Source: Terriglobia bacterium
GTDB taxonomy: Bacteria; Acidobacteriota; Terriglobia; Terriglobales; Acidobacteriaceae
Assembly (NCBI GenBank): GCA_963796205.1
Contig: CAWCKR010000004.1
Location: 742,726-766,725 of the forward strand
Direction: 5' to 3'
DNA: 24,000 nucleotides
This document shows positions 2,706 through 24,000 of this stretch, piece after piece. The notes under the pieces are model-generated. The model was not told where the DNA came from. It did no database searches and saw only the letters and a list, made by a program, of their open reading frames with translations. A program made the position numbers and the translations under genes. Within the stretch, counting starts at the first letter, position 1. Each line of letters opens with the position of its first letter.

Positions 2706-2794
2706 TGCTGTGGATCGTCCCCACATCCATCGCGCGCTTGGCGAGCATTTTTCCGGAGCACGCGACAGGCGCAGCGAGCAGGCAAGAGGGCCCC

Positions 2795-8096: not shown

Positions 8097-9776
8097 TTAA
8101 GGCGTTTTCTTCTTCGCGTACTGCCCCGCTAACTGCTGAAACGCCGGCAAGCTCTTCAACTTCACCAACTCCGGATCATTCTGCGCTTCTTCCGGCGAAT
8201 ACCCCTTCTCAAAGGCTTCCTTCAGCGCCGCCAGCGCCTCTGGCTGCTTGCCTCCCAATGCATTGACCTGCACCTGATCGTAAATCAACTGCAAATCCGA
8301 GGAATCAATCGCCCTCGCCTGCTTGATGTATTGCTCCGCATGCGCGGGATCGCCCTTCTTCGCATAGTAGAGCGCCAGGTCTCCCATCACGCTGGCCGAC
8401 CGCGGATTCACCTGCAACTGCTGATATGCGAGTCCGATCGCCTTATCGTAAGTTGTCACCGCTTGCTCGGTATGGCCTGACGCGCGGTACGCGTCCGCGA
8501 GGTTGCCCATCACCTGCTCGTCCTTCGGACTCATTTCCGCGGCCTTCTCGAAGGCGTGCACTGCTTCGTCATAGCGCTTTAGGAAAAAGTACGCTGTACC
8601 AAGATTCGAATATGCCGAGGCATCAGGCTCTAATTCGATCGTCTTCTGCAAGCCCGGGATCGCCTCCTGGTACTTCCCTTGTCGCAAATAAACCGCAGCA
8701 ATGTTTCCCCAGCCAATGGGATTGTCTGCTGCCAGTTCAGTCACACGCTGGTATTCTTGCAAAGCCTTGTCGCTGTCGCCGGTTTGCAAATAGGCGCCGC
8801 CCAGCTTGTTGTGGTTGTACCAATAATAGGGATTCGCGTTCACCGCAGCCTGATATGCCGCGATCGCATCCTGTTTCTTCCCGCTCGCCAGATATGCATC
8901 GCCCAACCGATAGTAAGTCTCATCGGAGTTGGGAGCCAGCTTCAGCGCCTGCTGCAGCTCATCCACCGCTTGTGCGCTCTTGCCGGTCGCGTTGTAAACG
9001 CTTCCCAGGGCCTGGTGAACTTCCGGCAGATTCGGGTTCAGCCCCTCAGCCTTCTGTGCCGCCACCAGCGCCTTCTGCGCATACAGCGAATCTTTGCTGT
9101 CGCGGTAAAGGCGCAGGTTCGCGTCCGCCAATCCTGCATACGCCAGAGCGAAATTCGGATCCTGTTTGAGCGCCTCTTCGAGGAACTGCACCGCCGACTG
9201 CGTATCGCGCGTGCCCTGGCTTCCGCGCAACGCGTTGCGTCCCTTCAAATACGAATCGTACGCTGTGCTGTTCTCCGTCGGATGCACTCCGCTGCGCGCC
9301 AACTCTTCATTCGTCGGCTTCAATTCGAGCGCGGTCACAACGCTGCCATAAATCTGATCTTCGAGCGTCAGCAAATCGGCCGGGATTCCGGAGAATTCAT
9401 CGCTCCACAAACGGCGTCCACTGGCCACATCTTCCAGATCGAGGGTGATGCGGAACTTGTCGGCCGACCCCTGCACCGTGCCCTGCAGAATCAAATTCAC
9501 GCCCAGCGCCTGCGCGGCTTTGGTCAGTGGCAAGTCTTTGTTCGCGATCTTGTCGACCGCCGCCGACGAGGCCACGTGCACTTCCTTCAACTGAAACATC
9601 TTCGCCGACAGCGCATCCACCAACCCGGCCCCCACGTAGCCCAGCGCCTTTTCGTCGCCCAGAACCTTCAGTGGAAGCACCGCCACATACTTTCCCTTGC
9701 TCAAGGAGGGAATGTTTCCCGCGCCGATCTCGCCCTGCTGCGTTGCCGGAAAGACCAGATGCCGCGTCGCCGGCAC
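8097..9776 (-). CDS. TPR-repeat protein with an N-terminal TolB-N-like module; apparently the detached C-terminal part of the upstream kinase
   Basis: 559-aa ORF from GTG 9776. The N-terminus (YVAVLPLKVLGDEKALGYVGAGLVDALSAKM) is the module normally found just after the TM helix of kinase-TPR fusions. About a dozen TPR units follow (e.g. ALGSVYNATGKSAQAVDELQQALKLAPN). Its 5' 380 nt overlap the kinase ORF in another frame. Confidence 0.8.
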   Translation of the reverse strand: MPATRHLVFPATQQGEIGAGNIPSLSKGKYVAVLPLKVLGDEKALGYVGAGLVDALSAKMFQLKEVHVASSAAVDKIANKDLPLTKAAQALGVNLILQGTVQGSADKFRITLDLEDVASGRRLWSDEFSGIPADLLTLEDQIYGSVVTALELKPTNEELARSGVHPTENSTAYDSYLKGRNALRGSQGTRDTQSAVQFLEEALKQDPNFALAYAGLADANLRLYRDSKDSLYAQKALVAAQKAEGLNPNLPEVHQALGSVYNATGKSAQAVDELQQALKLAPNSDETYYRLGDAYLASGKKQDAIAAYQAAVNANPYYWYNHNKLGGAYLQTGDSDKALQEYQRVTELAADNPIGWGNIAAVYLRQGKYQEAIPGLQKTIELEPDASAYSNLGTAYFFLKRYDEAVHAFEKAAEMSPKDEQVMGNLADAYRASGHTEQAVTTYDKAIGLAYQQLQVNPRSASVMGDLALYYAKKGDPAHAEQYIKQARAIDSSDLQLIYDQVQVNALGGKQPEALAALKEAFEKGYSPEEAQNDPELVKLKSLPAFQQLAGQYAKKKTP

Positions 9777-10947
9777 TGCGAAGAAATGCGATGATCAGCG
9801 CCAGTGCTACCGCTGCCCAGATCATGCGCCCCTGGCTCGGCAGGTTCAGTTGCACCTGCACGCTGCGCGGCGCCGAAGTCTGGGAGATCAATTTCTCGAC
9901 TACGCTGGGATTCGATTGCCACGCGTCCAGCGTATCCAGCAACTCCTGCGCGCTTCCATAACGATGATTCGGATCCCGCTCCAGGCAACGCGCGACCACC
10001 ATGCTCAGCGATTTCGGAACCGTGGGATCGACTTGCGAGATCGGCACCGCCGCTTCCCGCGTGCGCTTCACCAGCGTCGCGATTCCGGTATCTGCTTTAT
10101 AGGGAGACTTGGCTGTCAGCAGTTCGTAGAAGATCAGCCCCACCGCAAACAGGTCCGACCGCTGATCGAGCGTCTCGCCCATCGCCTGTTCCGGAGACAT
10201 GTACTCGAACGTTCCCACCAGCGCCCCGGTCTGCGTCATGCCCGGTGACTCGAGCAAGCGCGCCAACCCGAAATCCATCACTACCACGCGCCCCTGCGGA
10301 TCGCGCATCACATTCTGCGGCTTCAGGTCGCGATGAATCACTCCTTCGGCATGCGCTGCTTCCAGCGCGCGGCAAATCTGCTGAATCGTTTCCACCGATT
10401 GGCTGGGAGAAAATTTTCCGTGCCGCCGCAACAGCGTCCGCAGATCATCGCCTTCCACGTACTCCATGGTGATGAACCGCGTGCCCTCCGACTCGCCGAG
10501 GTCGTAAATCCGCACCACGTTCTTGTGGGTCACGTGCCGCGCCAGAATCAGTTCCTGCTTGAAGCGCTGCAGAATGCTGGGATTTCCCGCAAGCTCGGGA
10601 CGAATCACCTTCAACGCGATGATGCGATCCAGTTCCTGATCGCGTGCCTGGTAGACGGCACCCATGCCGCCCTGGCCCAGCGTTTTCAAAATGCGGTAAC
10701 GCCCGGCGAGGATCGCCCCGGGGCTAAGGAGTGCCTGCTTCGCCAGGTCAGTGTCAGAAATCGATGTGATTGGAGGGGCCGGAGTGGAACCGCCCATCGC
10801 ACTGCCGGGCGCCATGGTAGGCGCGTCGGAAATATCGGACTGCGGCGGCGGAGTCTTTTCAGCCACCGGCGCCCTCTTGGGCGGCGAGCTTTCCCCGGAA
10901 GCTTTGGGAGCCTCGAAATCAGGCATAGTTTTGCCGTCGTCTTCCAT
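9397..10947 (-). CDS. Ser/Thr protein kinase (Hanks type) with a C-terminal TM helix; the ORF tail after about 9785 looks out of frame
   Basis: GQGGMGAVYQA P-loop, IIALKV Lys, HRDLKPQN, DFG, YMSPEQ, then the TM segment MIWAAVALALIIAF. The last ~125 codons (Gly/Arg/Ala-rich) have no protein-like character and overlap the TPR ORF. Confidence 0.85.
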   Translation of the reverse strand: MEDDGKTMPDFEAPKASGESSPPKRAPVAEKTPPPQSDISDAPTMAPGSAMGGSTPAPPITSISDTDLAKQALLSPGAILAGRYRILKTLGQGGMGAVYQARDQELDRIIALKVIRPELAGNPSILQRFKQELILARHVTHKNVVRIYDLGESEGTRFITMEYVEGDDLRTLLRRHGKFSPSQSVETIQQICRALEAAHAEGVIHRDLKPQNVMRDPQGRVVVMDFGLARLLESPGMTQTGALVGTFEYMSPEQAMGETLDQRSDLFAVGLIFYELLTAKSPYKADTGIATLVKRTREAAVPISQVDPTVPKSLSMVVARCLERDPNHRYGSAQELLDTLDAWQSNPSVVEKLISQTSAPRSVQVQLNLPSQGRMIWAAVALALIIAFLRSAGDAASGLSGNAAGRDRRGKHSLLEQGKVCGGASTEGSGRRKGAGLRGGRVGGCAVGEDVSVEGSARGLVGGGRQDREQRLATDQSRAGAGREFDSAGHGAGVGRQVPHHPRSGRCGQWTPFVER

Positions 10948-11214
10948 GCCAGGTCTGCTACTCCCAGGTGCGAGCCTTCTTCGGAATTCCAGGATTCAGA
11001 CGAAGCGCGGCCTGAGACGGGGAATCCCGGAAGTATACTCCACCCCAAGCCCCCGCAAACCATTGTTATGTCTAGGAATAACCGAGGTTAAGGAAGCAAC
11101 CGCGTCCCCGCCCATTGCTGTACCGAACCCGAACCAAAACCGCCGAGGACGCCGAGGTTTCCAAAATTAAAACCCCGCGTCCTCTGCGTCCCCTGTGGTT
11201 TTCACTTCTCGCGC

Positions 11215-11466
11215 CTATACGATGAAACTGCTTAATTCATATTCCGCATTCCGCAGGCCCCCGGCCCGCGCGGGTCGCCGCAGCTTCCGCATCCTCCCGC
11301 CGATGGCGACAGCCGACGCCCCACTCTTCGCCGACACCGCAAACACCGACAACTGTGGCGTCAACTTCTTGCTGTGGCACTTCGGACACTCGGCCTTTTC
11401 GCTGCCATACACCAGCGCTTCGAATCCGTGCTCGCATTCTTTGCAAATGTACTCATAGATAGGCAT
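11215..11466 (-). CDS. FmdB-family zinc-ribbon protein (C-terminal tail probably frameshifted)
   Basis: MPIYEYICKECEHGFEALVYGSEKAECPKCHSKKL carries the CxxC...CPxC FmdB signature. See the finding on the alternative Cys/Gly-rich tail ending at 11232. Confidence 0.8.
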   Translation of the reverse strand: MPIYEYICKECEHGFEALVYGSEKAECPKCHSKKLTPQLSVFAVSAKSGASAVAIGGRMRKLRRPARAGGLRNAEYELSSFIV

Positions 11467-11505
11467 AAATAACTCCGCTGCAACTTAACCATTTAAACTG
11501 TACGC

Positions 11506-12489
11506 GTGGGGTCCTTGCAAGACAAACCAACATTTCAGCCTCGCCGCGGACTGCGCGGCGGACACTTGCAAACCATTGGCAGCTTTCTGCTTCCGCGCCA
11601 CGTCATCCCCCCGCCCGCTGAAGAACGTCTGATCGACGTCGGAGATGGAGCCAAAATCCTTTGCCACTGTCACTGGCAGCCCGATCGCGCCAACGCGCTG
11701 ACCGTCATCGTGGTGCACGGACTGGAAGGTTCCAGCGAGTCGACATACATGCTGGGCATCGCCGCCAAAGGCTTGGCGCGCGGAATGAATGTGATCCGCA
11801 TGAACCAGCGCAACTGCGGAGGCACCGACGGCTTCTCGCCCACGCTTTATCACTCCGGACGCTCCGCCGACATCGCCGCCGTAGTCCGCCATCTCATGAA
11901 GAACGATCGCATTTCTCGTTTCGCGCTCGTAGGATTTTCCATGGGCGGCAACCTGGTGCTCAAGCTCGCCGGTGAGTGGGGAAGAGAAGGACCTTCCGAA
12001 TTCCGCGCCGTGGCGGCGGTTTGCCCTTCCGTCGATCTCGCAGCCTCGGCCGATGCGCTCCATCTGCCCAGTAACCGTTTGTACGAGTATTACTTCCTGT
12101 GGAGGTTGCGCCGGCGCCTGCGCGAGAAAGCGCGCCTGTTCCCCGGTGTCTTCGACGTCTCCCGCCTCAACGGCGTGACCACGTTGCGCGACTTCGATGA
12201 CAAAGTAACCGCCTTCTATTGCGGATTTGAGGGCGCCACTGACTATTACGCCCGCGCCGCCGCATCGAATGTCATCGATCGCATTGCGGTTCCGGCGTTT
12301 ATCCTCAATGCCGCCAATGATCCCTTCATCCGCATCCTTCCCGAAACACGCAAGAAGATCCTCGCGAATCCGCACATCACTTTTATCGAAACCGCCGACG
12401 GCGGGCACTGCTCCTACCTTGCCCAACCTGACGGAGACGACGGCCGCTGGGCCGAAGTCCGTGTGATCGAATTCCTGCGAACGATTTGA
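11506..12489 (+). CDS. alpha/beta-fold hydrolase (YheT-like)
   Basis: 327-aa ORF from GTG. N-terminal RGGHLQTIGSF. Nucleophile elbow GFSMGGN. HG at the end of VIVVHGLEGS. The full-length antisense ORF 11485..12498 is treated as a shadow. Confidence 0.85.
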   Translation: MGSLQDKPTFQPRRGLRGGHLQTIGSFLLPRHVIPPPAEERLIDVGDGAKILCHCHWQPDRANALTVIVVHGLEGSSESTYMLGIAAKGLARGMNVIRMNQRNCGGTDGFSPTLYHSGRSADIAAVVRHLMKNDRISRFALVGFSMGGNLVLKLAGEWGREGPSEFRAVAAVCPSVDLAASADALHLPSNRLYEYYFLWRLRRRLREKARLFPGVFDVSRLNGVTTLRDFDDKVTAFYCGFEGATDYYARAAASNVIDRIAVPAFILNAANDPFIRILPETRKKILANPHITFIETADGGHCSYLAQPDGDDGRWAEVRVIEFLRTI

Positions 12490-12504
12490 AGCGTGCATGC
12501 GTCA

Positions 12505-12659
12505 CGGGGAAGGGCACGATTTTCAATCGTGCCGGACGAAGCCAAAAGGTTCACGGCTTCAGCCGCTGAGGTTTGGTATTGGGTCGAAAGCCGACCTCGG
12601 GGGCTAAAGCCCTCAAGAATGGTCGCTCTTGCGGCACGATTGAAATCGTGCCCTTCCCG
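12505..12659. repeat. MITE/REP-like element bounded by ~27-bp inverted repeats
   Basis: CGGGGAAGGGCACGATTTTCAATCGTGCC (12505-12533) matches the reverse complement of GGCACGATTGAAATCGTGCCCTTCCCG (12633-12659), apart from two 1-nt run-length differences. Each arm is itself a hairpin (CACGATT-loop-AATCGTG). The interior has further small hairpins (GGCTTCAGCC, GGGCTAAAGCCC). Confidence 0.5.
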
Positions 12660-12825
12660 ATTCGCTTCGCCTTCGCATCCTCGAACGATTTGGCTGTCCC
12701 TCCCCATCTTGACAACCTCTCGTTGCTAACGTGGAATACTCCCACGAATTAAAAGCCTCATGGCTTGATCGCCGGAACCAGCTTGGGTTCGAGCGTCCAC
12801 GTCAGTCGTTCAGGAAGGTTTAGAA

Positions 12826-14144
12826 GTGTTCCAGCGATTCCGCGCGCTGCTTTTGTTGAGTCTGCTCCTATGCCTGCTGAGTTGTGGCGGGGGCAGTTCA
12901 AACGCCAATCCCGCTCCGCCTCCTCCCCTTCCCGGCGCCATTCCCGCCAAACTTTTTTCGCTCTCCGTTCACAGCGTCAACGACTGGCCGACGGTTCCAT
13001 TTGCCGGCCTTCGCCTGTGGGGAACCGGTACTTCATGGCAGGACATCAATTACGCACCGGGAATCTTTGATTTCTCAGCGCTCGACCGCTGGATTAGCGC
13101 CGCCCAGGCTCACAACACCGATTTGATCTACACCTTCGGCGAAGTGCCCGGCGTGGGCCTCTTCCGACACGACTCTGATTTGCGGTAACAGCGGCGCTCC
13201 CATCGGCACTTGCGCTCCGCCTGACGATCTCAATGCTGATGGCACCGGAGCCAACCAGCATTGGAAGGACTTCGTGACCGCTGTGGTCACCCACGCCGCG
13301 GGAAAAATCAAGGTCTGGGAAATCTGGAACGAACCCACCGTCCCCGGATACTGGCAGGGCACGAACCAGCAGATGCTGCGCTTGGCGCAAGACGCCTACG
13401 GCATCATTAAAGCCATCGACCCGAATGCGCTGGTGACCACGCCCGCGCCCTCTACCGGAATCAACGGCGTCGCCAACTGGATGGGCCCCTATCTCGCGCT
13501 CGGTGGTGGCAATACGCCGACATCATCAGCTTTCACGGATATAACTGGAGCACGCAGGCGGGAGTCTATCCCCAGCCCGAGGCCATCGTCCCCCTGGTAA
13601 ACAATCTGCAGGGCCGTATTGGCCAGCAATTCGCAAAATAATAAACCGCTGTGGTGCAGCGAAGGCGGCTGGGGAGACACGACCGGCAACGGCTTCGTCG
13701 ATCAGGATCTGCATGCCGCTTACTTGGCGCGCCACTACCTGTTGCAGGCAAGTGAAGGCGTCGTCCGTTACTTCTGGTATGCCTGGGATAATGGCCTCGA
13801 CAGCGCCGGATTGCCCGATGGACTCTGGCTTCCTAATCTCCGGCATCACGCCGGCCGGCACGGCCTATCAGCAAATTCAAAACTGGATGGTCGGCGCCGT
13901 GCCGACCGCCCAGTGCTCCGCCAACGGAAACATCTGGACCTGCAATTACACTCGCGCGAACGGATATCAAGCCGAGGCGATCTGGGATACCTCGAAGAGC
14001 TGTTCGAACGGCATCTGTGGCACCGGCCCGCAAGGTGCACCATCGCAATATGTGCACTACCGCGATCTCAACGGCAATACCACCAGCATTACCGGTGGTA
14101 CTGTCCCGGTGGGAGCGAAACCGATCCTGTTAGAGAATCAGTGA
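12826..14144 (+). pseudogene. clan GH-A (TIM-barrel, GH39/GH5-like) glycoside hydrolase lipoprotein, disrupted by four frameshifts
   Basis: Lipoprotein signal (LLLCLLSCGG). The reading frame must switch near 13150, 13511, 13636 and 13815 to give a continuous sensible protein. That protein carries WEIWNEP (acid/base Glu), ADIISFHGY and KPLWCSEGGWG (nucleophile Glu). ORF-track pieces: 12826..13188, 13274..13600, 13619..14185 and 13713..14144. Confidence 0.75.
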
Positions 14145-14253
14145 AGCTCGTGCAGATGACCGTCCCGTTGCGCGTCTCGCCATAATGCGAGGCAATCTGC
14201 TTGATCCATTGGAAGGGCGTGTCCATTGCATGAGCCAGCCGATGGAACGTCTC
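14143..14253 (-). pseudogene. possible relic fragment of an arylsulfatase-family gene
   Basis: A start-less ~37-codon stretch, AHAMDTPFQWIKQIASHYGETRNGTVI, resembles the conserved TPFQW-KQ(V/I)ASH-GGTRN block of large arylsulfatases as I remember it. It is bounded by a stop upstream and has no continuation. Confidence 0.3.
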
Positions 14254-14356
14254 TTATAGGGACGAGCTTAGACTATCTGCGATCTCCTAAGGCAGAGCGG
14301 ACTTGCTATCATTGGAGAAGCGTTACCGCTTTGAACTGTGGTCTTTAGTCGGAAAC

Positions 14357-14433
14357 GGGCGCGTAGCTCAAACGGATAGAGCATCGGATTTCTAATCCGA
14401 GGGTTGCAGGTTCAATTCCTGCCGCGCCTACCA
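14357..14433 (+). tRNA. tRNA-Arg (anticodon TCT), CCA encoded
   Basis: Manual cloverleaf. Acceptor GGGCGCG/CGCGCCT. D arm GCTC-AAACGGATA-GAGC. Anticodon arm TCGGA-TTTCTAA-TCCGA. Variable loop GGGTT. T arm GCAGG-TTCAATT-CCTGC. Discriminator A followed by CCA. Confidence 0.95.
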
Positions 14434-14542
14434 GCCCGCCGGCTTCAGCGTCGCGGCCCGGGGGCGTGCCTGTCTTTGTAGATACCTCATGGTTGCCATT
14501 CCGTTTGACCGCTGCCCTGCTTATGTTGGATATTGAGACGGA

Positions 14543-14722
14543 ATGGACACCGAGCGGACCATTGCCGAAATCGAGTGGCTGGAGCGCATGTTCGCCGTGC
14601 CCGACGCCAGGCCGCTGAGCGCGAGTGACATCTCGGCTGCGAATCGAAGGCACGACGAGATGAACGCCCAAAGCCCGTGGTTTCAGCTTTGGCATCGGTA
14701 CGGCATCTGCTGCCGCACCTGA
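14543..14722 (+). CDS. possible small protein (59 aa), unknown function
   Basis: ATG..TGA ORF just below the track's size cutoff: MDTERTIAEIEWLERMFAVPDARPLSASDISAANRRHDEMNAQSPWFQLWHRYGICCRT. G/C-rich third positions resemble neighbouring genes. The RBS is weak. Confidence 0.35.
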   Translation: MDTERTIAEIEWLERMFAVPDARPLSASDISAANRRHDEMNAQSPWFQLWHRYGICCRT

Positions 14723-15353: not shown

Positions 15354-15371
15354 TTGTGACTTACGTCACAA
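15354..15371. promoter_or_regulatory. perfect CRP/FNR-family type palindrome
   Basis: TTGTGAC-ttac-GTCACAA, i.e. TGTGA-N6-TCACA with extended arms. It lies about 110-125 nt upstream of the cytochrome-porin ATG (15480), in the divergent intergenic region. Confidence 0.4.
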
Positions 15372-15479
15372 ACCTGCGTGACCCCTGCCACAGCGTCTTG
15401 GGTCGTAGCTAACCGAAAATCCCCACACTGAGTTTGGGGAGTATCGGTTCAGAGAATGAATTCATTAGGAGGCGATTCG

Positions 15480-17054
15480 ATGCCCATGCATCGTCGCAAG
15501 ACTGCAATCTTGTTCGTGCTCGCTGGCATGATTCTGCTGTCGAGCACAAGCTACGCCATTCCCGCGTTCTCACGCCTGTACGGGACATCGTGCAGCACCT
15601 GCCACCTCGACTTCCCCAAGCTCAATGACTTCGGGAAAGCCTTCAAAGATGCTGGCTTCAAGTTTCCGAAAGACGACGAAACCTTCATCAAGATCCCGCC
15701 GGTGATGCTCGGATCGCAGGCCCAGCAGGAACTCTGGCCGCACACGATTTGGCCGGGCAGCATTCCCGGACTGCCTCCGATCGGCCTGCGCTATAACACC
15801 TTTTTCCAGGTGGTCAGCCAGAATCGCAACAATTACTCGAATCTGCAGAACCCGGGAGATCCAACAGCCGGCTTCATCCCCCGTACCGATTTTCAGTCCG
15901 GACTGTTCAGCATCTTTACGGCTGGAAACTTCGGCAGCGACATTGCCTTCTGGGTTGATGACGATATCAGCGTTGGAGGGGCTAACGCCAATGGCGGTCT
16001 CGGCGACGGTTACCTCAAGTTTGTGAACATCGGACGCTTCCTCAAATTGCCGACAGACTCTCTGAGCTTGCGGGTCGGCCAATTCGAACTCGACTTGCCC
16101 TTCAGCCCGGCGCGCAGCTGGAACCTGAGTGGTTGGGACATTTACGGTCAGTCCAATGTTGGAATCCCGAACGCGACCTTTGGAAGCCCCACGGTAAATA
16201 ATGGCTTTTCCCTGGATAGTGCCGCGCAGGGCGTCGAACTCAGCGGCGGCCATACCTACCGCGGCTACCACTACTCGCTCGCCTTCGTGAATCAAAACAC
16301 CGGTGGCACGCCGGCCGGCGGCACGAACGTTCCGCCTGAGGTTCAGTACACCTCCGACTCGAACTTCAAAGATATCTACGGACGCTTCTCCTATCGTTTC
16401 AATCTCGAGCGCGATCCTAAAAGCCGCAACGAGATTCAGGCCGCGGGAGCTACGGGGCCGCGAGACCATACGTACCTCAACGTAGGCGGCCTCTACTTCT
16501 ACGGCCGTTCGGTGCAGCGCTTCCAGGGACAAGACTCCGCCGGCGATCCCGTCGTTCTCACCGCGCGCGAGCCCTTCTATCGTGCGGGCGCCGATTTCAG
16601 CTTTAACTACCATACCTTCAACCTGTTCGGTCAATACATCTACGGACGCGATCAGAACCTGCTGCCCCTGGTCCCGACCAATTTCGTGTTGCCCAGCGGC
16701 TTCATTACCGGCCATCCGGCGACTTTCGACGGAGGCTTCATCGAAGCCGACTATCTGGCGCTGCCCTGGTTGATGACCATCATGCGCTGGGACGAGGTCA
16801 ACTCCAGCGCCGACTTCTTGAATGGCGTGGGCGCCACTCCCGACTCCTCGAGCGCACCTTTCCTCTCACCCTACCGCTCGGCTCGCAACCGTTTCACACC
16901 CGGAGTGCAGTTCCTGGTTCATGCCAACATCAAAGCCTCGTTCGAATATCAGATTCGGCCCCAGCAGGTCGTTTACGACCCCACGACCGGCAAGCCATTG
17001 ACCAATCCCTTCCGCACCAATTCAGCGGTGGCGGGATTGGAGTTCGTGTACTAA
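15480..17054 (+). CDS. Cyc2-like fused monohaem cytochrome c / outer-membrane beta-barrel porin
   Basis: ATG 15480 lies 7 nt after AGGAGG. Signal peptide ending SYA. A single CxxCH sits right after the cleavage site in PAFSRLYGTSCSTCHLDFPKLNDFG, with a PxL motif after the haem site. About 470 aa follow, rich in Gly, Tyr, Phe and Asn with an alternating pattern. The protein ends in the OMP-type terminus GLEFVY. Confidence 0.8.
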   Translation: MPMHRRKTAILFVLAGMILLSSTSYAIPAFSRLYGTSCSTCHLDFPKLNDFGKAFKDAGFKFPKDDETFIKIPPVMLGSQAQQELWPHTIWPGSIPGLPPIGLRYNTFFQVVSQNRNNYSNLQNPGDPTAGFIPRTDFQSGLFSIFTAGNFGSDIAFWVDDDISVGGANANGGLGDGYLKFVNIGRFLKLPTDSLSLRVGQFELDLPFSPARSWNLSGWDIYGQSNVGIPNATFGSPTVNNGFSLDSAAQGVELSGGHTYRGYHYSLAFVNQNTGGTPAGGTNVPPEVQYTSDSNFKDIYGRFSYRFNLERDPKSRNEIQAAGATGPRDHTYLNVGGLYFYGRSVQRFQGQDSAGDPVVLTAREPFYRAGADFSFNYHTFNLFGQYIYGRDQNLLPLVPTNFVLPSGFITGHPATFDGGFIEADYLALPWLMTIMRWDEVNSSADFLNGVGATPDSSSAPFLSPYRSARNRFTPGVQFLVHANIKASFEYQIRPQQVVYDPTTGKPLTNPFRTNSAVAGLEFVY

Positions 17055-17084
17055 AGCAAGCGATTTGAAAGAACAGGAGAAATC

Positions 17085-17666
17085 ATGAAACGCAATGCCC
17101 TAGTCATAACCATGATCGTCGCTGCACTGGCGCTCGCCGCTCACGCCGGCACCATCAGCGGAAAAGTCTCAGGTGTCGCCGGCGAGTCTGTCGTCTACGT
17201 CGACACCATCGCGGGAAAGACTTTCCCGGCGCCCACGCAGAGTCCCATCATCGACCAGAAGGGTCTCTTGTTCCAACCGCACATTACCGCCGTGCAGGTT
17301 GGAACTACGGTCGAATTCCTCAATAGCGACAGCGTCGCTCACAACGTTTTCTGGACCTCGGTTGGAGGCAACAAGAAGCTCGGACACAACCTCGGTACCT
17401 GGCCCAAGGGCGAGAAGCGTCCCTTTAAGTTCGACAACCCTGGCGCGGTTGCACTGCTGTGCAATGTCCATCCCGAAATGTCGGGCTACGTCATCGTCGC
17501 TCCCACACCGTATTTCGCCGTGACCGACAAGTCCGGTGAATACAAGATCGAAAACGTCCCTGACGGAAGTTACACAGTGACTGCCTGGCATGAAGGCGCA
17601 AAAAATTCCTCCAAGCCTGTCACCGTCTCCGGCGACACCAAAGCGGATTTCACTCTGACCAAGTAA
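17085..17666 (+). CDS. periplasmic type-1 copper (cupredoxin, amicyanin-like loop) protein with a C-terminal CarboxypepD_reg-like beta-sandwich
   Basis: Signal peptide (ALALAAHA). Candidate Cu ligands are the His in SVAHNVFW plus the Cys, His and Met in LLCNVHPEMSGY (C-x2-H-x2-M, as in amicyanin). C-terminal KSGEYKIENVPDGSYTVTAWHEG. AGGAGA RBS. Confidence 0.85.
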   Translation: MKRNALVITMIVAALALAAHAGTISGKVSGVAGESVVYVDTIAGKTFPAPTQSPIIDQKGLLFQPHITAVQVGTTVEFLNSDSVAHNVFWTSVGGNKKLGHNLGTWPKGEKRPFKFDNPGAVALLCNVHPEMSGYVIVAPTPYFAVTDKSGEYKIENVPDGSYTVTAWHEGAKNSSKPVTVSGDTKADFTLTK

Positions 17667-17672
17667 GGAGAA

Positions 17673-17705
17673 GGGGAGCGGTCGCTGACCGCTCCCTTTT
17701 CTTCT
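17673..17705 (+). terminator. rho-independent terminator
   Basis: GGGAGCGGTC-gct-GACCGCTCCC is a 10-bp GC-rich stem followed by TTTTCTTCT, starting 7 nt after the cupredoxin stop. Confidence 0.6.
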
Positions 17706-17758
17706 GCTTGTCACAGACATCCACCATCAACAGCGGCTAAAAAGACCGGATCACCATC

Positions 17759-19744
17759 ATGCTGAAACGCTACAAGGACAAAAAAGTCGACAAGGATTGG
17801 TTGAACACAAACTTTCCTTGCATGATGGCCTGTCCGGCCCACACTAACGCGGGACGCTACGTAGGCCTGATCGCCGAAGGCCGCTTCGAAGAAGCCTACA
17901 AAATAGCCCGCGACCCCAATCCCCTGGCCAGCATTTGCGGACGCGTCTGTGCTCATCCGTGCGAGACCGCCTGCCGCCGCGGCGAAATCGACAAACCGAT
18001 TTCCATCCGCGCCCTCAAGCGCTTTCTCACCGAACGCTACGGCGCCGAATCGAAGCACCCCGTCGATGTGAACGCTGGCCGTGGCCAGAACAAGCTACCT
18101 TTCAAGGTTGCTGTCGTTGGCGGAGGTCCCGTCGGACTCTCTGCCGCGCACGACCTCGCCTTAATGGGCTACGCGGTCACGATCTTCGAAGCCGCTCCAG
18201 TCGCCGGCGGCATGCTCTACCTCGGCATCCCCGAATACCGCCTCCCGCGCGACGTAGTCGAAGCTCAAGTCCGCGAGATCCTCGAAACTGGCGACATCAC
18301 CTTGCTGTTGAATCACGCCGCCGGACGCGACTTCGCCATCTCCGACCTCCGGCGAGAAGGCTTCGATGCTGTCTTAATCGCTGTCGGCGCTCACCGTAGT
18401 CGCGACCTCACCATTCCCGGAGTCGATCTCGACGGCGTCTACAAAGGCATCGATTTCCTGCTGAACGTCAACCTCGGCTACAAGTTCACCATCGGCAAGA
18501 AGGTCATTGTCATCGGCGGCGGCAATGTGGCCATGGACGTCGCTCGCTCCGCCGCGCGCGAAGTGGTCAAGCAACACGTCGCCGGAGTCGAAGACCTCGA
18601 ACCCTCGATGGAGAACGTCAGCGCGGTCGCCACCAAAGAAATGGTCGACATCTCGCTCTCCGCGCTGCGCATGGGCGCTCACGAAGTGAATCTCGTCTGC
18701 CTCGAAAAGCGCGAGGAGATGCCTGCGGCTTTGGAAGAGATCGTAGAGGCCGAAGAAGAAGGCATCATCATGCATCCCGGCCTCGGCCCCAAGCGCATGA
18801 TCGGGAAAAACGGACACGTGGTTGCCCTCGAAGCTCTGAAGACCAAGTGGGTCTTTGACGAGAACAAGCGCTTCAATCCAGCGTTCTATGAGGGCAGCGA
18901 GACCCTCATCGAGTGCGACACCATCATCATGGCCATTGGCCAGGCCCCGAAGCTCGACTTTCTAAAGAAGGAAGACGGCGTCGAGATTTCTCCTCGCGGC
19001 TTGATCTCAGTCAATCCGCAAACCCTGATGACCTCAGCTTCCGGCATCTTTGCAGGTGGCGATTGCGTCTTCGGTCCGCGTCTCATCATCGACAGCGTCG
19101 CCGATGGCAAGCGCGCCGCAGTTGGCATAGACGAATTCCTGCGCGGCCAGAAGCATCCCGATCCCATCGTTGAAGTGGAAGTTTTCAAACGCCACAGCAT
19201 GCCTCTCGAATTGCTCGACCTGGTGCGGCCCGCCGTACCCATGCTGCCGCTCGAACGCCGCACCGGAGTCACCGAAGTCGAAATCGGATACGACGCCGCC
19301 AGCGCGGTCGAAGAGGCGCAACGCTGCCTGCACTGCTGGGTCAATACCGTCTTCGAGGGTGTCCCCGAAGACGGCACCATGTGCATCCTGTGTGGCGGAT
19401 GCGTCGATGTCTGTCCTGAGAATTGCCTTGAACTGGTTTCGCTTGGCCGCATCGCCTTCGAGCCGGAAACCGTGCAGCACATCCGCGATGAACAGAAGTT
19501 GTTCGGCGTCGAGCTCGATGAAGTGGCTGCGGACGAACTCGGCGTTGTCACCGGCTCGGCCATGCTGAAAGATGAAACCCGCTGCATTCGTTGCGGATTA
19601 TGCGCTGCCCGATGCCCTGTCGGCACCATCACCATGGAGTCTTACAACCTGGTTCCTGCCGAACCCACGGGATTGATCTCCATTGAAACGATTGATGGAC
19701 CACTTCGCGCCAAAGCCCCGGCAACTGTAGGAGGCCCGAAATAA
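17759..19744 (+). CDS. GltD-like (glutamate synthase small-subunit family) FAD/NAD(P)-binding Fe-S oxidoreductase with a C-terminal 2x[4Fe-4S] ferredoxin domain
   Basis: N-terminal Fe-S motifs (FPCMMACPAHT, CGRVCAHPCETAC). Two Rossmann motifs (VVGGGPVGLSAA, VIGGGNVAMDVA). GGDC near the FAD site. C-terminal CILCGGCVDVCP and CIRCGLCAARCP. No signal peptide or TM helix, so predicted cytoplasmic. Confidence 0.9.
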   Translation: MLKRYKDKKVDKDWLNTNFPCMMACPAHTNAGRYVGLIAEGRFEEAYKIARDPNPLASICGRVCAHPCETACRRGEIDKPISIRALKRFLTERYGAESKHPVDVNAGRGQNKLPFKVAVVGGGPVGLSAAHDLALMGYAVTIFEAAPVAGGMLYLGIPEYRLPRDVVEAQVREILETGDITLLLNHAAGRDFAISDLRREGFDAVLIAVGAHRSRDLTIPGVDLDGVYKGIDFLLNVNLGYKFTIGKKVIVIGGGNVAMDVARSAAREVVKQHVAGVEDLEPSMENVSAVATKEMVDISLSALRMGAHEVNLVCLEKREEMPAALEEIVEAEEEGIIMHPGLGPKRMIGKNGHVVALEALKTKWVFDENKRFNPAFYEGSETLIECDTIIMAIGQAPKLDFLKKEDGVEISPRGLISVNPQTLMTSASGIFAGGDCVFGPRLIIDSVADGKRAAVGIDEFLRGQKHPDPIVEVEVFKRHSMPLELLDLVRPAVPMLPLERRTGVTEVEIGYDAASAVEEAQRCLHCWVNTVFEGVPEDGTMCILCGGCVDVCPENCLELVSLGRIAFEPETVQHIRDEQKLFGVELDEVAADELGVVTGSAMLKDETRCIRCGLCAARCPVGTITMESYNLVPAEPTGLISIETIDGPLRAKAPATVGGPK

Positions 19745-19746
19745 CC

Positions 19747-20238
19747 ATGGCTGACGAGAAACGGATCACCTCGCCGCTACCTACCGACGAGCACTCGCGT
19801 CGGGAATTTTTTCTGAAGCTGGGACTCGGATCACTGGGCATCGCCGCGGCGGGAACGACGGTTTTCGCTTACCAGTTCCTCTCGCCGAACGTGCTCTTTG
19901 AACCTTCCCCGATCGTGAATGCCGGCAAGCCCGAAAGCTACCCCCTCGATTCTGTGACGCTCGATGTCAACAACGGCATTTACCTGATTCACGCCAAGGA
20001 AGGATTCTTCTCGCTAAGTGCCATCTGTACGCATCTCGGTTGCATGACCGCGTGGAAGCCGGAACTCGGCATCATCGCCTGCCCCTGCCACGGCAGCAAG
20101 TTCAAGCGCGATGGCGAAAAAATCGAAGGCCCCGCACCCAAGCCGCTGCCCTGGCTCAAAACCTGGGTCAGCGATGAAGGCGATCTGATGGTCGACCGCT
20201 CCGCCGACATTCGTCCCATGGAGTTCGTGAGGGTTTGA
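19747..20238 (+). CDS. Rieske [2Fe-2S] protein with Tat-type signal/anchor
   Basis: [20 protein letters not shown] (twin-Arg). Cluster boxes CTHLGC and CPCHGS. The start is 2 nt after the upstream stop. Confidence 0.9.
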
Positions 20239-20240
20239 GC

Positions 20241-21032
20241 ATGGAAAAAACGGTCTCAAATTATTTTGATGAGTTGCGCGCAACCAGAATCTGGCGCTCG
20301 GTCTTCCGCAGTGGCATAGGTTCGAGCACTCTGCACCGCTCGCTGGCCATCCAGCAGAACGTCTTCCTGCATCTGTTCTCGACCAAAGTTCGCCGCCGCA
20401 TGCTGAGCTTCAGCACCACCTGGTATCTGGGAACGCTGACTCTCGGGACGTTTCTGATTCTGGTCAGCACGGGAATCTTCCTGATGCTCTACTACCATCC
20501 CTCGGTGCCCCAGGCATACGCCGACACCAAGGACCTGCAGTTCGTCGTTTCTTCCGGACTGTTTCTCCGCAACCTTCATCGCTGGTCCGCACACGCCATG
20601 GTGTTCCTCGTCTTCGCGCATATGTTCAAAGTTTTCTATCGCGGCGCTTATCGCGCCCCCCGCGAGTTCAACTGGGTTATCGGCGTCATCCTTCTGGTCA
20701 TCACGCTTCTGCTCAGCTATACGGGATACCTTCTTCCCTGGGATCAACTCGCCTACTGGGCGATCACCATCGGATCGAATCTCGCTTCGGCGGTTCCGGT
20801 CTTCGGAACCAAGGTCCACTTCCTCATGCTGGGTGGAAATCAGGTGAACGCCAACGCGCTGCTGCGCTTTTACGTTCTGCACTGCATGATCTTGCCGCTG
20901 ACCGCGATCATGTTCATCGCGATTCACTTCTGGCGCATCCGCAAAGACGGCGGACTCTATGCGCACCAAAGCGAACCTAAGACTCTCGCCGCACCGACCG
21001 TGCCGCAAGTCGCCGGAAAGGAGGCGCTGTGA
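20241..21032 (+). CDS. cytochrome b6-type (N-terminal half of a split cytochrome b)
   Basis: Haem-ligand pairs H-x13-H ([17 protein letters not shown]) and H-x14-H ([17 protein letters not shown]); the x14 spacing is b6-type. [11 protein letters not shown] motif. ATG 20241 with a GAGGG RBS; TTG 20235 is an alternative. Confidence 0.9.
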
Positions 21033-21733
21033 GCGATCAGAAAGACTTCGTCGCCGGACTGGATTCCAACGCCCGCAAGTCTCCGAAGCGTATTGTTTTC
21101 GTCACGCGCCGTACTTCGGCGCAAGTCAAAGTCACCGACGAGGACCAGCTTCAGACCTATCCGGAGGTGCTGTTCCGCGCCGTAGTGGCCATCGAAACCC
21201 TGGCGATCGCCCTCGTCGTCATCGCGCTCGCCTTCAATGCGCCGCTTGAGGGCCTTGCCGATCCATCGCATACACCGAACCCTGCAAAAGCACCGTGGTA
21301 CTTCCTTGGCCTGCAGGAAATGCTGCACTATTTCCCGCCCGTGGTCGCCGGAGTTCTGGTACCGACGCTGGTCATCATCGCGTTAGTGGTCATTCCCTAC
21401 TTCAACATCAATATCGAGGCGGAAGGGTTGTTCCTCAAAGACCGCCAGAAGCGTCTGCGGATCTTTTACACGATCGTCATCGTGTTTTGTGCGTTTTTAC
21501 TCTTCTTCGATGTCATCGTTGCTCTCGTCCCAACGCTCATTGTCGCCGCCTTTATGATCGCGGCGTCGCAAAGTTCACCGCAGTCGCCTTCGCCCTTTCG
21601 ACGGTATCTCGCGGCGAAACCGCTCTCTTACTGGATCATGACCTGGTTCCTGTTCGAACTGGTCGTGCTCACTGCTGTTGGCACCTTCTTCCGCGGCCCG
21701 GGCTGGTCCTGGGTGCTGCCCTGGAGGAGCTAA
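21029..21733 (+). CDS. cytochrome b C-terminal-domain / b6f subunit IV-like membrane protein with extra C-terminal TM helices
   Basis: GTG start overlaps the upstream stop (GTGA), with GGAGG upstream. [19 protein letters not shown] corresponds to the PEWY-region motif. There are several further hydrophobic helices. Confidence 0.8.
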
Positions 21734-23821
21734 GTGCAATCATCGGGCAAGAACTCTCTCTGGAAAACGCTCTTTGGTGATCCCGTCCGCGCCTTCGGCG
21801 TCGTCAGCATACTTCTGCTGATCTCGCTCGCCATTGCTCCGGCAAAAAATTACTTCAGCGAGTGGCGCCACTACCAACACCAATACCTGAAACTCGTTCG
21901 CGGACGCGGCGACGCCGTCACTCTGCAGCGTCATTTCGAAGCAGGCATTCACCAGATCTGGCTGCCCGAAATCAACGTTGTCGATCGCTGCACCACCTGC
22001 CACGTCGGCCAGAAGGAAGCCAGCCTCACCGATGTCAGCACGCAGCCTTTCCGCCGCCATCCCGCGATTCCGCACACCTCCGAACAGTTCGGATGCGTGA
22101 TGTGTCATCGTGGACAGGGCGCCGCGACCACCGTCGAAGAAGCCCATCGCAGCACGCTGGCCTGGGAGCAGCCGATCCTCCCCGCACGCTACGTTGAGTC
22201 ATCCTGCGGACAATGTCATCACACCCCGCTGACCGGAACGCCGCAGTTAAACGCCGGCCGCGATCTGCTGGCCCGCGCGGGATGCGTCCATTGCCACACC
22301 ATCAAGGCACAGGACGGCAGCGCCATGAAAGCCTCCGACGATCCCCCCTCTCTTTCGCACATCGCCGACAAGACCACGCGCGAATGGATCTACGCCTGGC
22401 TCAAAGATCCACAAGCCTATGCCGTCACCGCGGGCATGCCCAACTTCAAGCTGAGCGATAACGATGCGCGCGACATCTCGGCATTCCTCATCGCGAACAG
22501 CACGCCGCTAGTGGGTGACACCGCAACGGTAGCTGCACCCGGCAAGGCGCCTGATCCGACCGCCGGCGCCAGCCTCTACGGAGAGTCCTTCTGCGCTTCT
22601 TGCCACGCCGTGCAGAATGCCGCTGGGAACGTTGTCGGCGGCAACATCGGACCCGAACTCACTCGCGTTGGCAGCAAGGTGAAACCGGAGTGGTTGCAAG
22701 CGTGGCTGAAAAATCCGCGCACCTATGACCCAGCAACGGCCATGCCGCACTACCGTTTCACCGACCAGCAGGTGAGCGTGCTGAACGGTTTCCTGCAGGC
22801 CAAGGCCGATGCCGATCTGCTCGCGAACGTTCACCTCGAGGCCGCCACTGCTGACCAGATCGCCCACGGCAAACTTCTCGTCACCGAATACGGATGCGCC
22901 TCCTGCCACGAAATCAGCGGGATCAAGAAGCCCGAAAACTTCGCTCCCGAACTCACTCGCATCGGCAGCAAGCCCGTCACGCAACTCATTTTCCTGCCGG
23001 GGATGCAACACTCGCTGCCCGACTACATCTCGAATAAGATCCGGCAGCCGCGAGCCTTCGGATCCGCGCTGAAGATGCCGCAGTACAGCTTCACGCCCGC
23101 GCAGATCGACGCACTCACCACCGCGCTGCTCTCGCTCACCGACCGATCGCAGAGCTTGCCGATGTCGCTCGCAGTGGCCGCGCCTCCAGGCTCGCACTAT
23201 CAACCTGCGGGCAAAGCCGGACAGCTGATCAACGATCTAGCTTGCTTCAGCTGCCACACCATCAACGGCCGCGGAGGCGATATGGCCCCCGACCTTACCT
23301 GGGAAGGCAGTTCCGTGCAGCGCCAGTGGTTGACCGAATTTCTGAAGAATCCCAACACCCTTCGTCCCGCATTGATTCGCCGCATGCCGAAGTTCAATCT
23401 TTCTGATAGCGATATTAACGAACTCACTGATTACATCATGACCGTCTACCAGACGCCGGCCTTCGATCGCGACTCGATGCCGCAGACCGGATATCCCGCC
23501 GCGCAGGTCGAACAAGGCAAGCAACTCTTCTATTCCAAATACGCCTGCCAGTCGTGCCACATCATTGACACGAAAACGGACAAGGGATACGTCGGGCCCA
23601 CTCTCACACAAGTGGGATCACGCCTGACCGCCGCATGGATGTATCACTGGCTGAAGAATCCGCAGGCTCTTCGCCCCGGAACGATGGAGCCGAACCGCAA
23701 CATGAGCGACGAAGATGCGCAGGCATTGACCGCCTACCTCACCACGCTAAAAAGCGGAAAGGCAGCAGCCAAGACAGCTGCCCACACCGGGAAACCCGCA
23801 ACTCTGGAGGCAAGGAAATGA
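21734..23821 (+). CDS. membrane-anchored octahaem c-type cytochrome (3-haem N-terminal module plus five tandem class-I monohaem domains)
   Basis: Eight CxxCH motifs: CTTCH, CVMCH, CGQCH, CVHCH, CASCH, CASCH, CFSCH, CQSCH. N-terminal TM helix FGVVSILLLISLAIAP. The last five motifs are each followed ~45-60 aa later by a conserved Met (MPNF, MPHY, MPQY, MPKF, MEPN). GTG start lies directly after the upstream TAA, with GGAGGAG upstream. Confidence 0.9.
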   Translation: MQSSGKNSLWKTLFGDPVRAFGVVSILLLISLAIAPAKNYFSEWRHYQHQYLKLVRGRGDAVTLQRHFEAGIHQIWLPEINVVDRCTTCHVGQKEASLTDVSTQPFRRHPAIPHTSEQFGCVMCHRGQGAATTVEEAHRSTLAWEQPILPARYVESSCGQCHHTPLTGTPQLNAGRDLLARAGCVHCHTIKAQDGSAMKASDDPPSLSHIADKTTREWIYAWLKDPQAYAVTAGMPNFKLSDNDARDISAFLIANSTPLVGDTATVAAPGKAPDPTAGASLYGESFCASCHAVQNAAGNVVGGNIGPELTRVGSKVKPEWLQAWLKNPRTYDPATAMPHYRFTDQQVSVLNGFLQAKADADLLANVHLEAATADQIAHGKLLVTEYGCASCHEISGIKKPENFAPELTRIGSKPVTQLIFLPGMQHSLPDYISNKIRQPRAFGSALKMPQYSFTPAQIDALTTALLSLTDRSQSLPMSLAVAAPPGSHYQPAGKAGQLINDLACFSCHTINGRGGDMAPDLTWEGSSVQRQWLTEFLKNPNTLRPALIRRMPKFNLSDSDINELTDYIMTVYQTPAFDRDSMPQTGYPAAQVEQGKQLFYSKYACQSCHIIDTKTDKGYVGPTLTQVGSRLTAAWMYHWLKNPQALRPGTMEPNRNMSDEDAQALTAYLTTLKSGKAAAKTAAHTGKPATLEARK

Positions 23822-24000
23822 CAAGGCGCGAACTCACCATCGGCGCAATGACGTTTCTCCTGATGCTCTCCGCTTGCTCGCGCAAGTCTGCCCCGGCATC
23901 AAGTCCTGCAGGCACGGCCTTCGGCGCTGCTATCGTCGAATCAAGTGGAGGCAAGCAGATCGGAGCCACCGGCGCGACCCTCAGCCAACCAATCGTCGTC
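23818..24000 (+). CDS. lipoprotein, partial (continues beyond the window)
   Basis: The ATG overlaps the upstream stop (ATGA). MTRRELTIGAMTFLLMLSAC has a lipobox-like LSAC. The frame is open to the window end. Confidence 0.5.
   Translation, partial: MTRRELTIGAMTFLLMLSACSRKSAPASSPAGTAFGAAIVESSGGKQIGATGATLSQPIVV

Follow-up and report, generated by a model that had tools for sequence, protein, structure and literature searches.

Near the end of a 24,000-nucleotide (nt) stretch of DNA from a Terriglobia bacterium (GenBank assembly GCA_963796205.1, contig CAWCKR010000004.1, positions 742,726 to 766,725; hereafter the window), genes for a Cyc2-like outer-membrane cytochrome and a cupredoxin lie beside genes for a Rieske/cytochrome b (R/b) complex with its own NAD(P) oxidoreductase. 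The question raised by this locus is whether these genes encode one electron-transfer system or are neighbours by coincidence, and, in the former case, in which direction the electrons would run. Judged from sequence, the block at 15354-24000 is part of one conserved cluster of approximately 11 kb, which is cut by the window end and encodes an envelope-spanning redox chain. In the reading that we favour, with a probability of about 0.5, the R/b complex would bifurcate electrons from menaquinol to NAD(P)+, and the Cyc2/cupredoxin pair would serve as its high-potential partner within a single chain.

An original prediction on this DNA had described an 8.6-kb block with genes for every compartment of the envelope. 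Translation of the open reading frames (ORFs) and comparison with Pfam and NCBIfam showed all eight genes, co-directional on the + strand, at about the positions that it had given and with identities mostly as it had given them. The features are as follows.

15480-17054, + strand (ORF opens at 15456): putative Cyc2-family fused monohaem cytochrome c/16-strand outer-membrane porin, 532 amino acids (aa); signal peptide, CSTCH, PXL and AlphaFold2 model
17085-17666, + strand: type-1 copper cupredoxin joined to a CarboxypepD_reg immunoglobulin (Ig)-like domain, predicted periplasmic, 193 aa; PF00127 and PF13620
17670-17700, + strand: stem-loop with T-rich tail, terminator- or attenuator-like; 14-bp stem with 8 G-C pairs
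17759-19744, + strand: GltD/NfnB-type FAD and NAD(P)(H) flavoprotein, predicted cytoplasmic, 661 aa; Fer4_20, Pyr_redox_2, Fer4_7 and PRK12771
19747-20238, + strand: Rieske [2Fe-2S] subunit with twin-arginine signal and membrane anchor; PF00355
20235-21032, + strand: cytochrome b6-type subunit with an N-terminal extension of approximately 55 aa; PF00033
21029-21733, + strand: subunit IV-like membrane protein of about 5 helices; PF00032 and hydropathy
21734-23821, + strand: octahaem cytochrome c, membrane-anchored, 695 aa; 8 CxxCH, Cytochrom_C and Cytochrome_CBB3
23818-24000, + strand: lipoprotein gene, 5' end only; match to a 244-aa protein of the related locus L001

Contrary to the placing in the original prediction, the R/b group opens with the flavoprotein gene and closes with the octahaem gene. 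The stop of the flavoprotein gene is 2 bases ahead of the Rieske start, and the R/b genes are tightly packed or overlapping. In relatives, the conserved cluster extends beyond the window end by a lipoprotein cytochrome c gene and a gene for a 434-aa secreted protein. The translation of the truncated lipoprotein gene in the window, MTRRELTIGAMTFLLMLSAC..., matches the 244-aa protein of L001. The full-length relative has a lipobox, a Big_1 Ig-like domain and a monohaem cytochrome c (Pfam Big_1 and Cytochrome_CBB3), and this replaces the previous description of a lipoprotein without a known role.

Conservation of the cluster was studied with a forward scan, in which the Cyc2-like protein was compared with one genome per species and relatives were found in at least 478 genomes. 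An alignment of 27 Cyc2 sequences was too divergent for the locus search, and a narrower alignment was used. The best 80 loci had 63-94% identity, and 76 of them carried enough downstream DNA to be scored. All 80 were from Terriglobia or Acidobacteriaceae metagenome-assembled genomes (MAGs) except one labelled Limnocylindrales; this one, L067 (DATIWA010000574.1), carries a complete window-type cluster on a contig binned as Candidatus Limnocylindrales (Chloroflexota), and its placement reflects either a binning error or horizontal transfer. Homologues of the flavoprotein at 88-98% identity were found on MAGs named Terriglobales or Ca. Sulfotelmatobacter. The full gene order was present in 55 of the 76 scored loci and comprised, in sequence, the Cyc2-like protein, cupredoxin, flavoprotein, Rieske protein, cytochrome b, subunit IV, octahaem cytochrome, 244-aa lipoprotein cytochrome c and 434-aa secreted protein.

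A short form was found in the other 21 loci, consisting of genes for the Cyc2-like protein, the cupredoxin, a dihaem cytochrome c of approximately 300 aa and a homologue of the 434-aa protein (54-61% identity), with no R/b genes. These loci were L003, L005-L007, L009, L011-L013, L015, L019-L021, L023, L025, L035, L037, L041, L042, L052, L055 and L059, and the short cluster lies at about 10001-14600 in each full-length locus. Because Cyc2 and the cupredoxin remain in the short loci together with the 434-aa protein, whose gene flanks the R/b module downstream in full clusters, the module sits inside the Cyc2 gene set. In a neighbour-joining tree of the Cyc2-like proteins, every deep branch had the full cluster, and the short form was confined to one clade and scattered singletons. 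Both forms may occur in one organism, as L057 (full) and L059 (short) are from the same MAG, the short form being a second copy. The 434-aa protein (19023-20327 in L001) has a signal peptide and matched no Pfam or NCBIfam family. It is found together with the window-type Cyc2 in both the full and the short form, and in L080 its gene is directly 3' of the Cyc2-like gene.

The reverse scan, with subunit IV against metagenomes, gave at least 590 contigs, of which 27 had at least 5.6 kb of upstream DNA and were informative. A Cyc2-family gene was present in the cluster of 25 of these 27. Ten loci (eight among the 27, and L137 and L149 with less upstream DNA) carried a second Cyc2 subtype of 455-480 aa, with the motif A[LV]PSYARQTGL[PA]CSGCH..PPEL and 23-29% identity to the first. 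The gene for this subtype stood beside R/b and GltD-like clusters that were otherwise similar, and was upstream of the cupredoxin gene, at the position of the window-type gene, in L133, L134, L137, L138, L142, L145, L146 and L165, and downstream of the lipoprotein gene in L148 (13057-14262) and L149 (5180-6679); second-subtype loci are without the 434-aa protein. Exchange for such a distant paralogue with the architecture kept is hard to explain by chance. L145 carries, in addition, a third Cyc2-like gene at 16370-17893.

The gene context of ten distant Cyc2-like homologues (25-31% identity) was used as a deep test. In L082 and L086, with Cyc2 proteins approximately 27-30% identical to that of the window, the order was two-component regulator, Cyc2-like protein, a 233- or 373-aa protein, cupredoxin/CarboxypepD_reg, flavoprotein, Rieske protein, cytochrome b(6), (subunit IV), multihaem cytochrome c and monohaem cytochrome c. 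The L086 flavoprotein is 49% identical to that of the window over its full length and has a common insertion. In L171, R/b genes are present and the flavoprotein is absent. Other inner-membrane modules were found beside the Cyc2-like gene elsewhere, including a bd-like oxidase (L169), COX2-type genes (L083 and L168) and an NrfD/molybdopterin module (L087). No respiratory module was found within 9 kb in L085, and the contig of L170 ends just past the gene.

Linkage of the outer and inner gene groups in other genomes, which the original prediction had named in advance as one of the points on which it could fail, is strongly conserved, being kept in both directions of search (55/76 loci and 25/27 contigs) and in very distant lineages. 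The caveat that adjacency of the two groups might be coincidental, which accompanied that prediction, is no longer needed.

Three further observations were made at the distant loci. 1) A histidine kinase and a sigma54- or OmpR-type response regulator are almost always encoded upstream of the Cyc2-like gene (L082, L085, L086, L087 and L168-L171). 2) The protein of 373-378 aa encoded between the Cyc2-like and cupredoxin genes (L086, 10396-11517; L168, 10337-11473) has a faint match to PF10634, a family of periplasmic Fe2+ transport, which is a weak hint of iron as the substrate. 3) A Ca. Scalindua MAG (GCA_052827685.1; L084, 7897-10493) carries a Cyc2-like gene followed by genes for CarboxypepD_reg, SCO1, cupredoxin and PilJ-domain proteins and for an 865-aa GltD-like protein. 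This locus was considered as a link to the anammox R/b complexes and was rejected; the GltD-like protein has only 36% identity to that of the window and, with extra N- and C-terminal regions, a different architecture, and the contig ends there.

The cupredoxin matched PF00127 at 28.6 bits (cut-off 21.2) and also PF13620. The copper ligands, C-x2-H-x2-M and an upstream His, are kept in all 114 homologues compared, and the cupredoxin gene adjoins the Cyc2-like gene in 79 of 81 loci. Between this pair and the R/b genes lies the hairpin at 17670-17700, for which the original prediction had proposed a terminator separating two operons. The strong hairpin itself was confirmed, and its nature as a terminator is ambiguous. 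An uninterrupted stem of at least 9 bp was found in the cupredoxin-flavoprotein gap of 23 of 53 related loci, the 95th percentile of shuffled sequences being 8, and among the cases listed the recurring stems mostly begin 10-20 nt past the cupredoxin stop. A T-rich tail was present at the hairpin in only 10 of the 53, and a generic terminator scan gave a count equal to chance expectation. The hairpin may be a dosage or stability element inside the conserved cluster, which would probably raise the dose of the outer pair, and not a boundary between two unrelated operons.

These results bear on an alternative explanation, in which the two gene groups share only a carrier. The R/b complex would bifurcate to NAD(P)+ and to a cupredoxin/cytochrome c pool re-oxidised by an oxidase encoded elsewhere, and the Cyc2-like protein would feed or drain this pool separately; the genes would be kept together by the common carrier, by maturation factors or by regulation, and not by one obligatory path. 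Such an arrangement is consistent with the outer pair standing without R/b genes in 21 of 76 loci, the other inner-membrane modules found beside it in other phyla, the occurrence of full and short clusters in one genome and the hairpin that separates the gene groups. However, the R/b module is inserted between the Cyc2 partners and not placed beside them, a Cyc2-family gene is retained in 25 of 27 R/b loci, also where the subfamily is swapped or the gene has moved downstream, and the same order recurs in very distant lineages. We therefore regard a shared carrier as an unlikely explanation of the cluster, in comparison with the single chain that we favour.

Members of the Cyc2 family are defined by a signal peptide, one CXXCH, an upstream AXPXFAR[Q/K][T/Y], a downstream PXL, a length of at least 365 aa and a 16-strand OprP/OprO-like barrel (Keffer et al., PMC8406198). 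The window protein likely starts at Met9 (15480), which is invariant in relatives, and has a hydrophobic segment at residues 16-38, with a helix at 11-28 in the model followed by a conserved A-I-P mature start, as in a signal peptide. C46STCH50 is the sole CxxCH in the 532 aa, and C46, C49 and H50 are invariant in 150 family sequences; PXL follows in H50-L-D-F-P54-K-L56. The upstream motif, A34IPAFSRLY42, differs from the published pattern by two conservative changes (Ser for Ala, and Leu for Gln/Lys). Close relatives have PAFSRQY, and full-length homologues at 25-36% identity have PAFARKY, an exact match to the pattern.

A first model of this protein, from 32 close homologues, had a predicted local distance difference test (pLDDT) score of 39.7; it was discarded and replaced by an AlphaFold2 model from an alignment of 150 diverse sequences (pLDDT 78.3, predicted template modelling score 0.80), with approximately 16 strand elements past residue 105. 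In Foldseek, the top match of this model was OprP (2o4v_A, E = 9.5e-12), and OprO (4rjw) was at rank 29; OprP and OprO are the templates named for Cyc2 (PMC8406198). The protein had no matches in Pfam and NCBIfam. In a published similarity network, Acidobacteria homologues adjoin Leptospirillum Cyt572 (PMC10654088). Assignment of the protein to Cyc2 by the original prediction largely holds: the single CXXCH, PXL, size and predicted 16-strand OprP-like barrel agree, and the strict upstream motif is missed at two positions. We therefore describe it as a Cyc2-family member with a slightly variant motif and a putative function.

The variant motif leaves some room for a substrate other than iron, such as Mn, Cu, humic quinones or another small redox-active solute, with "Cyc2" as a structural label only. 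Besides the two departures from the strict pattern, the nearest characterised group (Cluster 3, Cyt572-like) was rated functionally most uncertain by the Cyc2 authors (PMC8406198), a role of Cyc2 in Mn(II) oxidation has been suggested for Ca. Manganitrophus, and a peat study argues that extracellular electron transfer there goes to organic acceptors. On the other hand, the biochemistry of the family is all on iron (PMC8406198), and the neighbouring 373-378 aa protein in distant loci has the faint Fe2+-transport match. A non-iron substrate appears highly improbable to us, and the single-chain reading is developed below with iron.

The inner-membrane module begins with the flavoprotein, which has an N-terminal domain with two [4Fe-4S] clusters, a Pyr_redox_2 domain and a C-terminal ferredoxin domain with two more (Fer4_20, Pyr_redox_2 and Fer4_7). 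It matched NCBIfam PRK12771 at 449 bits, its nearest solved structures were NfnABC (9bov/9bp5), NfnA and NfnI, and prediction of membrane helices gave none. The Rieske protein contains the motifs SRREFF, CTHLGC and CPCHGSKF. Its top matches in the PDB were Kuste4569 (9rk4, E = 1.5e-22) and Kustd1480 (9rk3, E = 3.8e-18) of the anammox bacterium Kuenenia, and the b6f Rieske proteins ranked behind them. Box II, CPCHGS-x-F, has the Ser/Phe pattern of Kustd1480, which is near-universal in the relatives; Kustd1480 has a midpoint potential of +335 mV (PMC12954380).

Cytochrome b matched PF00033 (E = 3.6e-44), with cytochrome b6 as the top PDB matches (E = 2e-45), and all four haem His ligands align with those of b6. 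Cys35 of b6, the ligand of haem cN, aligns to Tyr64; among 110 homologues, this position holds Tyr in 95 and Cys in 1. Within the N-terminal extension, the motif N-x-F-x-H46 recurs in 109 of the 116 homologues compared, those of the distant loci L082 and L086 among them. His46 is a candidate ligand of the additional interfacial haem b that the anammox models predict. Subunit IV matched PF00032 at 27.5 bits (cut-off 20.7); hydropathy segments at 45-78, 98-132, 141-183 (of double length) and 199-221 indicate about 5 helices, and a 15-residue signature is invariant in three deep lineages. In the octahaem protein, four class I cytochrome c domains come after four c3/NrfB-like haems, with Cytochrom_C and Cytochrome_CBB3 matching over several stretches. 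It had been taken for a free periplasmic wire in the original prediction, but the N-terminal hydrophobic helix at 12-41 is that of a membrane-anchored subunit, apparently at the position of cytochrome f/c1.

On the basis of these components, the following course of electrons is proposed in the favoured reading. The R/b module would oxidise menaquinol at the outer quinol site and split its two electrons. The downhill electron would pass from the high-potential Rieske cluster to the octahaem cytochrome c and then to the small cytochrome c or the cupredoxin. The second would cross the membrane through the b haems, possibly with the extra interfacial haem on His46, and would reach NAD(P)+ by way of the Fe-S chain and FAD. 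The Cyc2/cupredoxin pair would be the dedicated high-potential partner, linking the downhill branch to an extracellular one-electron couple, most plausibly Fe(III)/Fe(II). The potentials are approximately -75 mV for menaquinone, Acidobacteriaceae using MK-8 (menaquinone-8), and -320 mV for NAD(P). The Rieske cluster (approximately +300 mV by analogy), the class I haems, the type-1 copper and the Cyc2 haem would form a near-isopotential chain from the outer quinol site to the outer membrane, which could reverse; the Cyc2 haem of strain PV-1 has a potential of +208 mV (PMC8406198). Outward flow is favoured because forward bifurcation is downhill if the outer couple is above roughly +0.2 to +0.3 V, with the electrogenic step counted, and Fe(III) or another high-potential oxidant would then be the sink that pays for NAD(P)H formation. 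Iron at pH 4-5, in the acid habitat of Terriglobia, is expected to be above that threshold.

This course differs from the scheme first put forward for the locus, in which electrons of Fe(II) were pushed through the complex up to NAD(P)+; the sole published mechanism for such complexes is quinol bifurcation, and running it in reverse would use up NAD(P)H. Flow in the opposite direction, which had been offered as an alternative, would be a better fit than the uphill push. As a broader and more tentative proposal, a Cyc2-type porin with a cupredoxin may be the missing high-potential partner of NAD(P)-linked R/b complexes, allowing NAD(P)H to be formed directly from quinol at the cost of electron transfer to or from extracellular iron.

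The main competitor in direction is electron entry. Fe(II) would reduce the Cyc2-like protein and, through the cupredoxin and the octahaem cytochrome c, the Rieske protein; the R/b complex would run backward as a confurcation, in which one electron of Fe(II) and one of NAD(P)H, with the help of the membrane potential, reduce menaquinone. It would then correspond to the petI bc1 complex of Acidithiobacillus ferrooxidans, which acts in reverse. Several observations weigh against the outward reading and in part toward entry. Every characterised Cyc2 is an Fe(II) oxidase that passes electrons inward, and in Cyc2 models the haem is in a narrow pore fit for dissolved Fe2+ (PMC8406198). Fe(III) is barely soluble except at low pH or in bulky complexes. 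In other lineages, oxidase-like and thus electron-accepting neighbours of the Cyc2-like module (bd-like in L169; COX2-type in L083 and L168) point to an entry role. Loci without the R/b genes hold a dihaem c4-like cytochrome, as in the rus operon, and the pet operon of A. ferrooxidans includes the NAD-binding gene sdrA (PMC10654088), both of which are in line with entry. Other points touch the single chain as such. The outer pair is without the R/b module in 28% of Terriglobia loci, and a strong hairpin lies between the two gene groups. Neither a cupredoxin nor Cyc2 is encoded within 6.8 kb in L095, which has R/b and GltD-like genes, and L166 is without both the flavoprotein and Cyc2. The sampled loci are phylogenetically related, so that the counts overstate the number of independent events. 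The electron flow is something that we infer throughout, and formation of NAD(P)H by R/b complexes is itself a proposal only, even in anammox bacteria (PMC12954380).

Against entry, by stoichiometry a backward R/b complex would use up NAD(P)H and keep less energy than complex I with a quinol oxidase, and the climb to menaquinone (-0.075 V) from iron, which at acid pH is at +0.4 V or more, would be too steep for the NAD(P)H drop and the membrane potential to drive. A path from the Rieske cluster to NAD(P)+ without quinol chemistry is not apparent, and Terriglobia are known chiefly as organotrophs. Electron entry through the complex is therefore considered less probable, and outward flow with bifurcation is retained as the favoured reading.

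A literature search of incomplete coverage found no earlier description of an NAD(P)-linked R/b complex coupled to Cyc2 and a cupredoxin. A 2026 preprint on electron-transfer clusters of peat Acidobacteriota is about porin-multihaem systems, with no mention of Cyc2 or Rieske proteins. As far as can be told, what is new is that the complex is joined to Cyc2 and cupredoxin, that this union is widespread in soil Terriglobia and that it also occurs in distant lineages. Since 2013, complexes of the NAD(P)-linked R/b type have been proposed for anammox bacteria alone, and these are difficult to cultivate; a complex of this type appears to be widespread in Terriglobia, together with a conserved candidate partner. 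The cluster was found in MAGs of genera with aerobic cultured species (Granulicella, Terracidiphilus and Silvibacterium), and the mechanism may thereby become testable in tractable organisms. Matches to cyc2 in soil Acidobacteria may not simply signal lithotrophic iron oxidation, which bears on metagenomic surveys of the iron cycle in peat and permafrost soils. If the broader and more tentative proposal is true, abundant soil and peat Terriglobia and some members of other phyla would possess a bifurcating respiratory complex coupled to iron, of a kind without earlier description.

On its left flank, the window encodes proteins unrelated to the cluster, namely a sigma54-dependent response regulator (2597-4156, + strand), a DUF5996 protein (4153-5079, - strand) and a GH20 beta-hexosaminidase (5115-7154, - strand). 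Since the left flank is not the same in L001, a 94%-identical relative, the conserved unit begins at the Cyc2-like gene. On the - strand at 8097-10947, approximately 380 bases are common to an ORF with TPR repeats (8097-9776) and, in a different frame, one for a Ser/Thr protein kinase (9397-10947); they could be a single kinase-TPR gene with a frameshift, or the start could be mis-set.

The cluster was compared with four known systems. The rus and petI operons of A. ferrooxidans are similar in that Cyc2, a blue copper protein (rusticyanin), c-type cytochromes and a bc complex are given to one iron-linked path. They differ in being two separate operons with a canonical bc1 complex containing cytochrome c1, and NAD+ is reduced there through complex I. 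A. ferrooxidans is an obligate acidophilic lithoautotroph that uses ubiquinone. With the iron oxidases Cyc2 of A. ferrooxidans, Cyt572 of Leptospirillum and Cyc2 of Mariprofundus PV-1 (PMC8406198, PMC7029218), the window protein shares the signal peptide, the single N-terminal CXXCH, PXL, a length above 365 aa and the predicted barrel; in contrast, its motif is AIPAFSRLY, it is longer than most members at 532 aa, and its neighbours are an Ig-domain cupredoxin and an NAD(P)-linked R/b complex instead of rus/pet operons or cbb3 genes.

In the conserved extHIJKLMNOPQS cluster of Geobacter sulfurreducens, which offers a precedent, a phosphate-porin-like outer-membrane protein and periplasmic cytochromes are likewise joined to a Rieske protein (ExtO), a cytochrome b (ExtP), a membrane protein (ExtQ) and a lipoprotein cytochrome c (ExtS) (PMC5877670). 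In NCBIfam, the window cytochrome b was nearest to ExtP at 259.2 bits (cut-off 290), and ExtQ was matched at 54.1 bits (cut-off 150); ExtS was matched by the octahaem protein at 104.8 bits (cut-off 100), over part only of a protein approximately 2.6 times the length of the ExtS profile. Membership of the R/b unit in the Ext family was rejected on the ExtP and ExtQ scores, and the two are analogues only. Moreover, the porin ExtI is without a fused haem, the ext cluster is without a cupredoxin and an NAD(P) flavoprotein, and its multihaem set (ExtKL, ExtM and ExtN) is a different one.

The closest likeness of the inner unit is to the anammox complexes R/b-3 (Kuste4569-4574) and R/b-2 (Kustd1480-1485) of Kuenenia stuttgartiensis, which comprise a b6-like cytochrome b, a 5-helix subunit IV, a hexa- or octahaem cytochrome c and a putative NAD(P) oxidoreductase (PMC12954380). 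Formation of NAD(P)H by these complexes through quinol bifurcation was proposed by Kartal et al. in 2013, and the complexes have been modelled (PMC12954380); no high-potential partner reaction was put forward there for Kustd1480-85. Contrary to the supposition of the original prediction, R/b complexes with an NAD(P) subunit of their own had thus been described, and the Rieske protein and flavoprotein of the window have the same nearest solved relatives as those complexes. The module of the window is built on the same plan in one operon: a Rieske protein, a split b6-type cytochrome b, a 5-helix subunit IV, a multihaem cytochrome c replacing cytochrome f and a GltD/NfnB-like oxidoreductase. NfnABC 9bp5, the nearest structure to the window flavoprotein, is also the entry that the anammox authors found for Kuste4570 (PMC12954380), and the conserved His of the cytochrome b extension is a candidate counterpart of the site where their models put an extra haem b. 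The differences are that the host is an acidobacterium without an anammoxosome, that no HAO-like octahaem partner (Kuste4574) is encoded in the window, that the haem cN Cys is replaced by Tyr, which is treated as a variant trait and not as family-defining, and that the flavoprotein gene leads the R/b group. The module is also bracketed by the Cyc2-type porin, the cupredoxin and the 434-aa protein, and PMC12954380 describes none of these three for the anammox complexes. By its gene content and nearest relatives, the inner unit belongs with the anammox-type NAD(P)-linked R/b complexes, as a variant that lacks both the cysteine for haem cN and the HAO-like partner.

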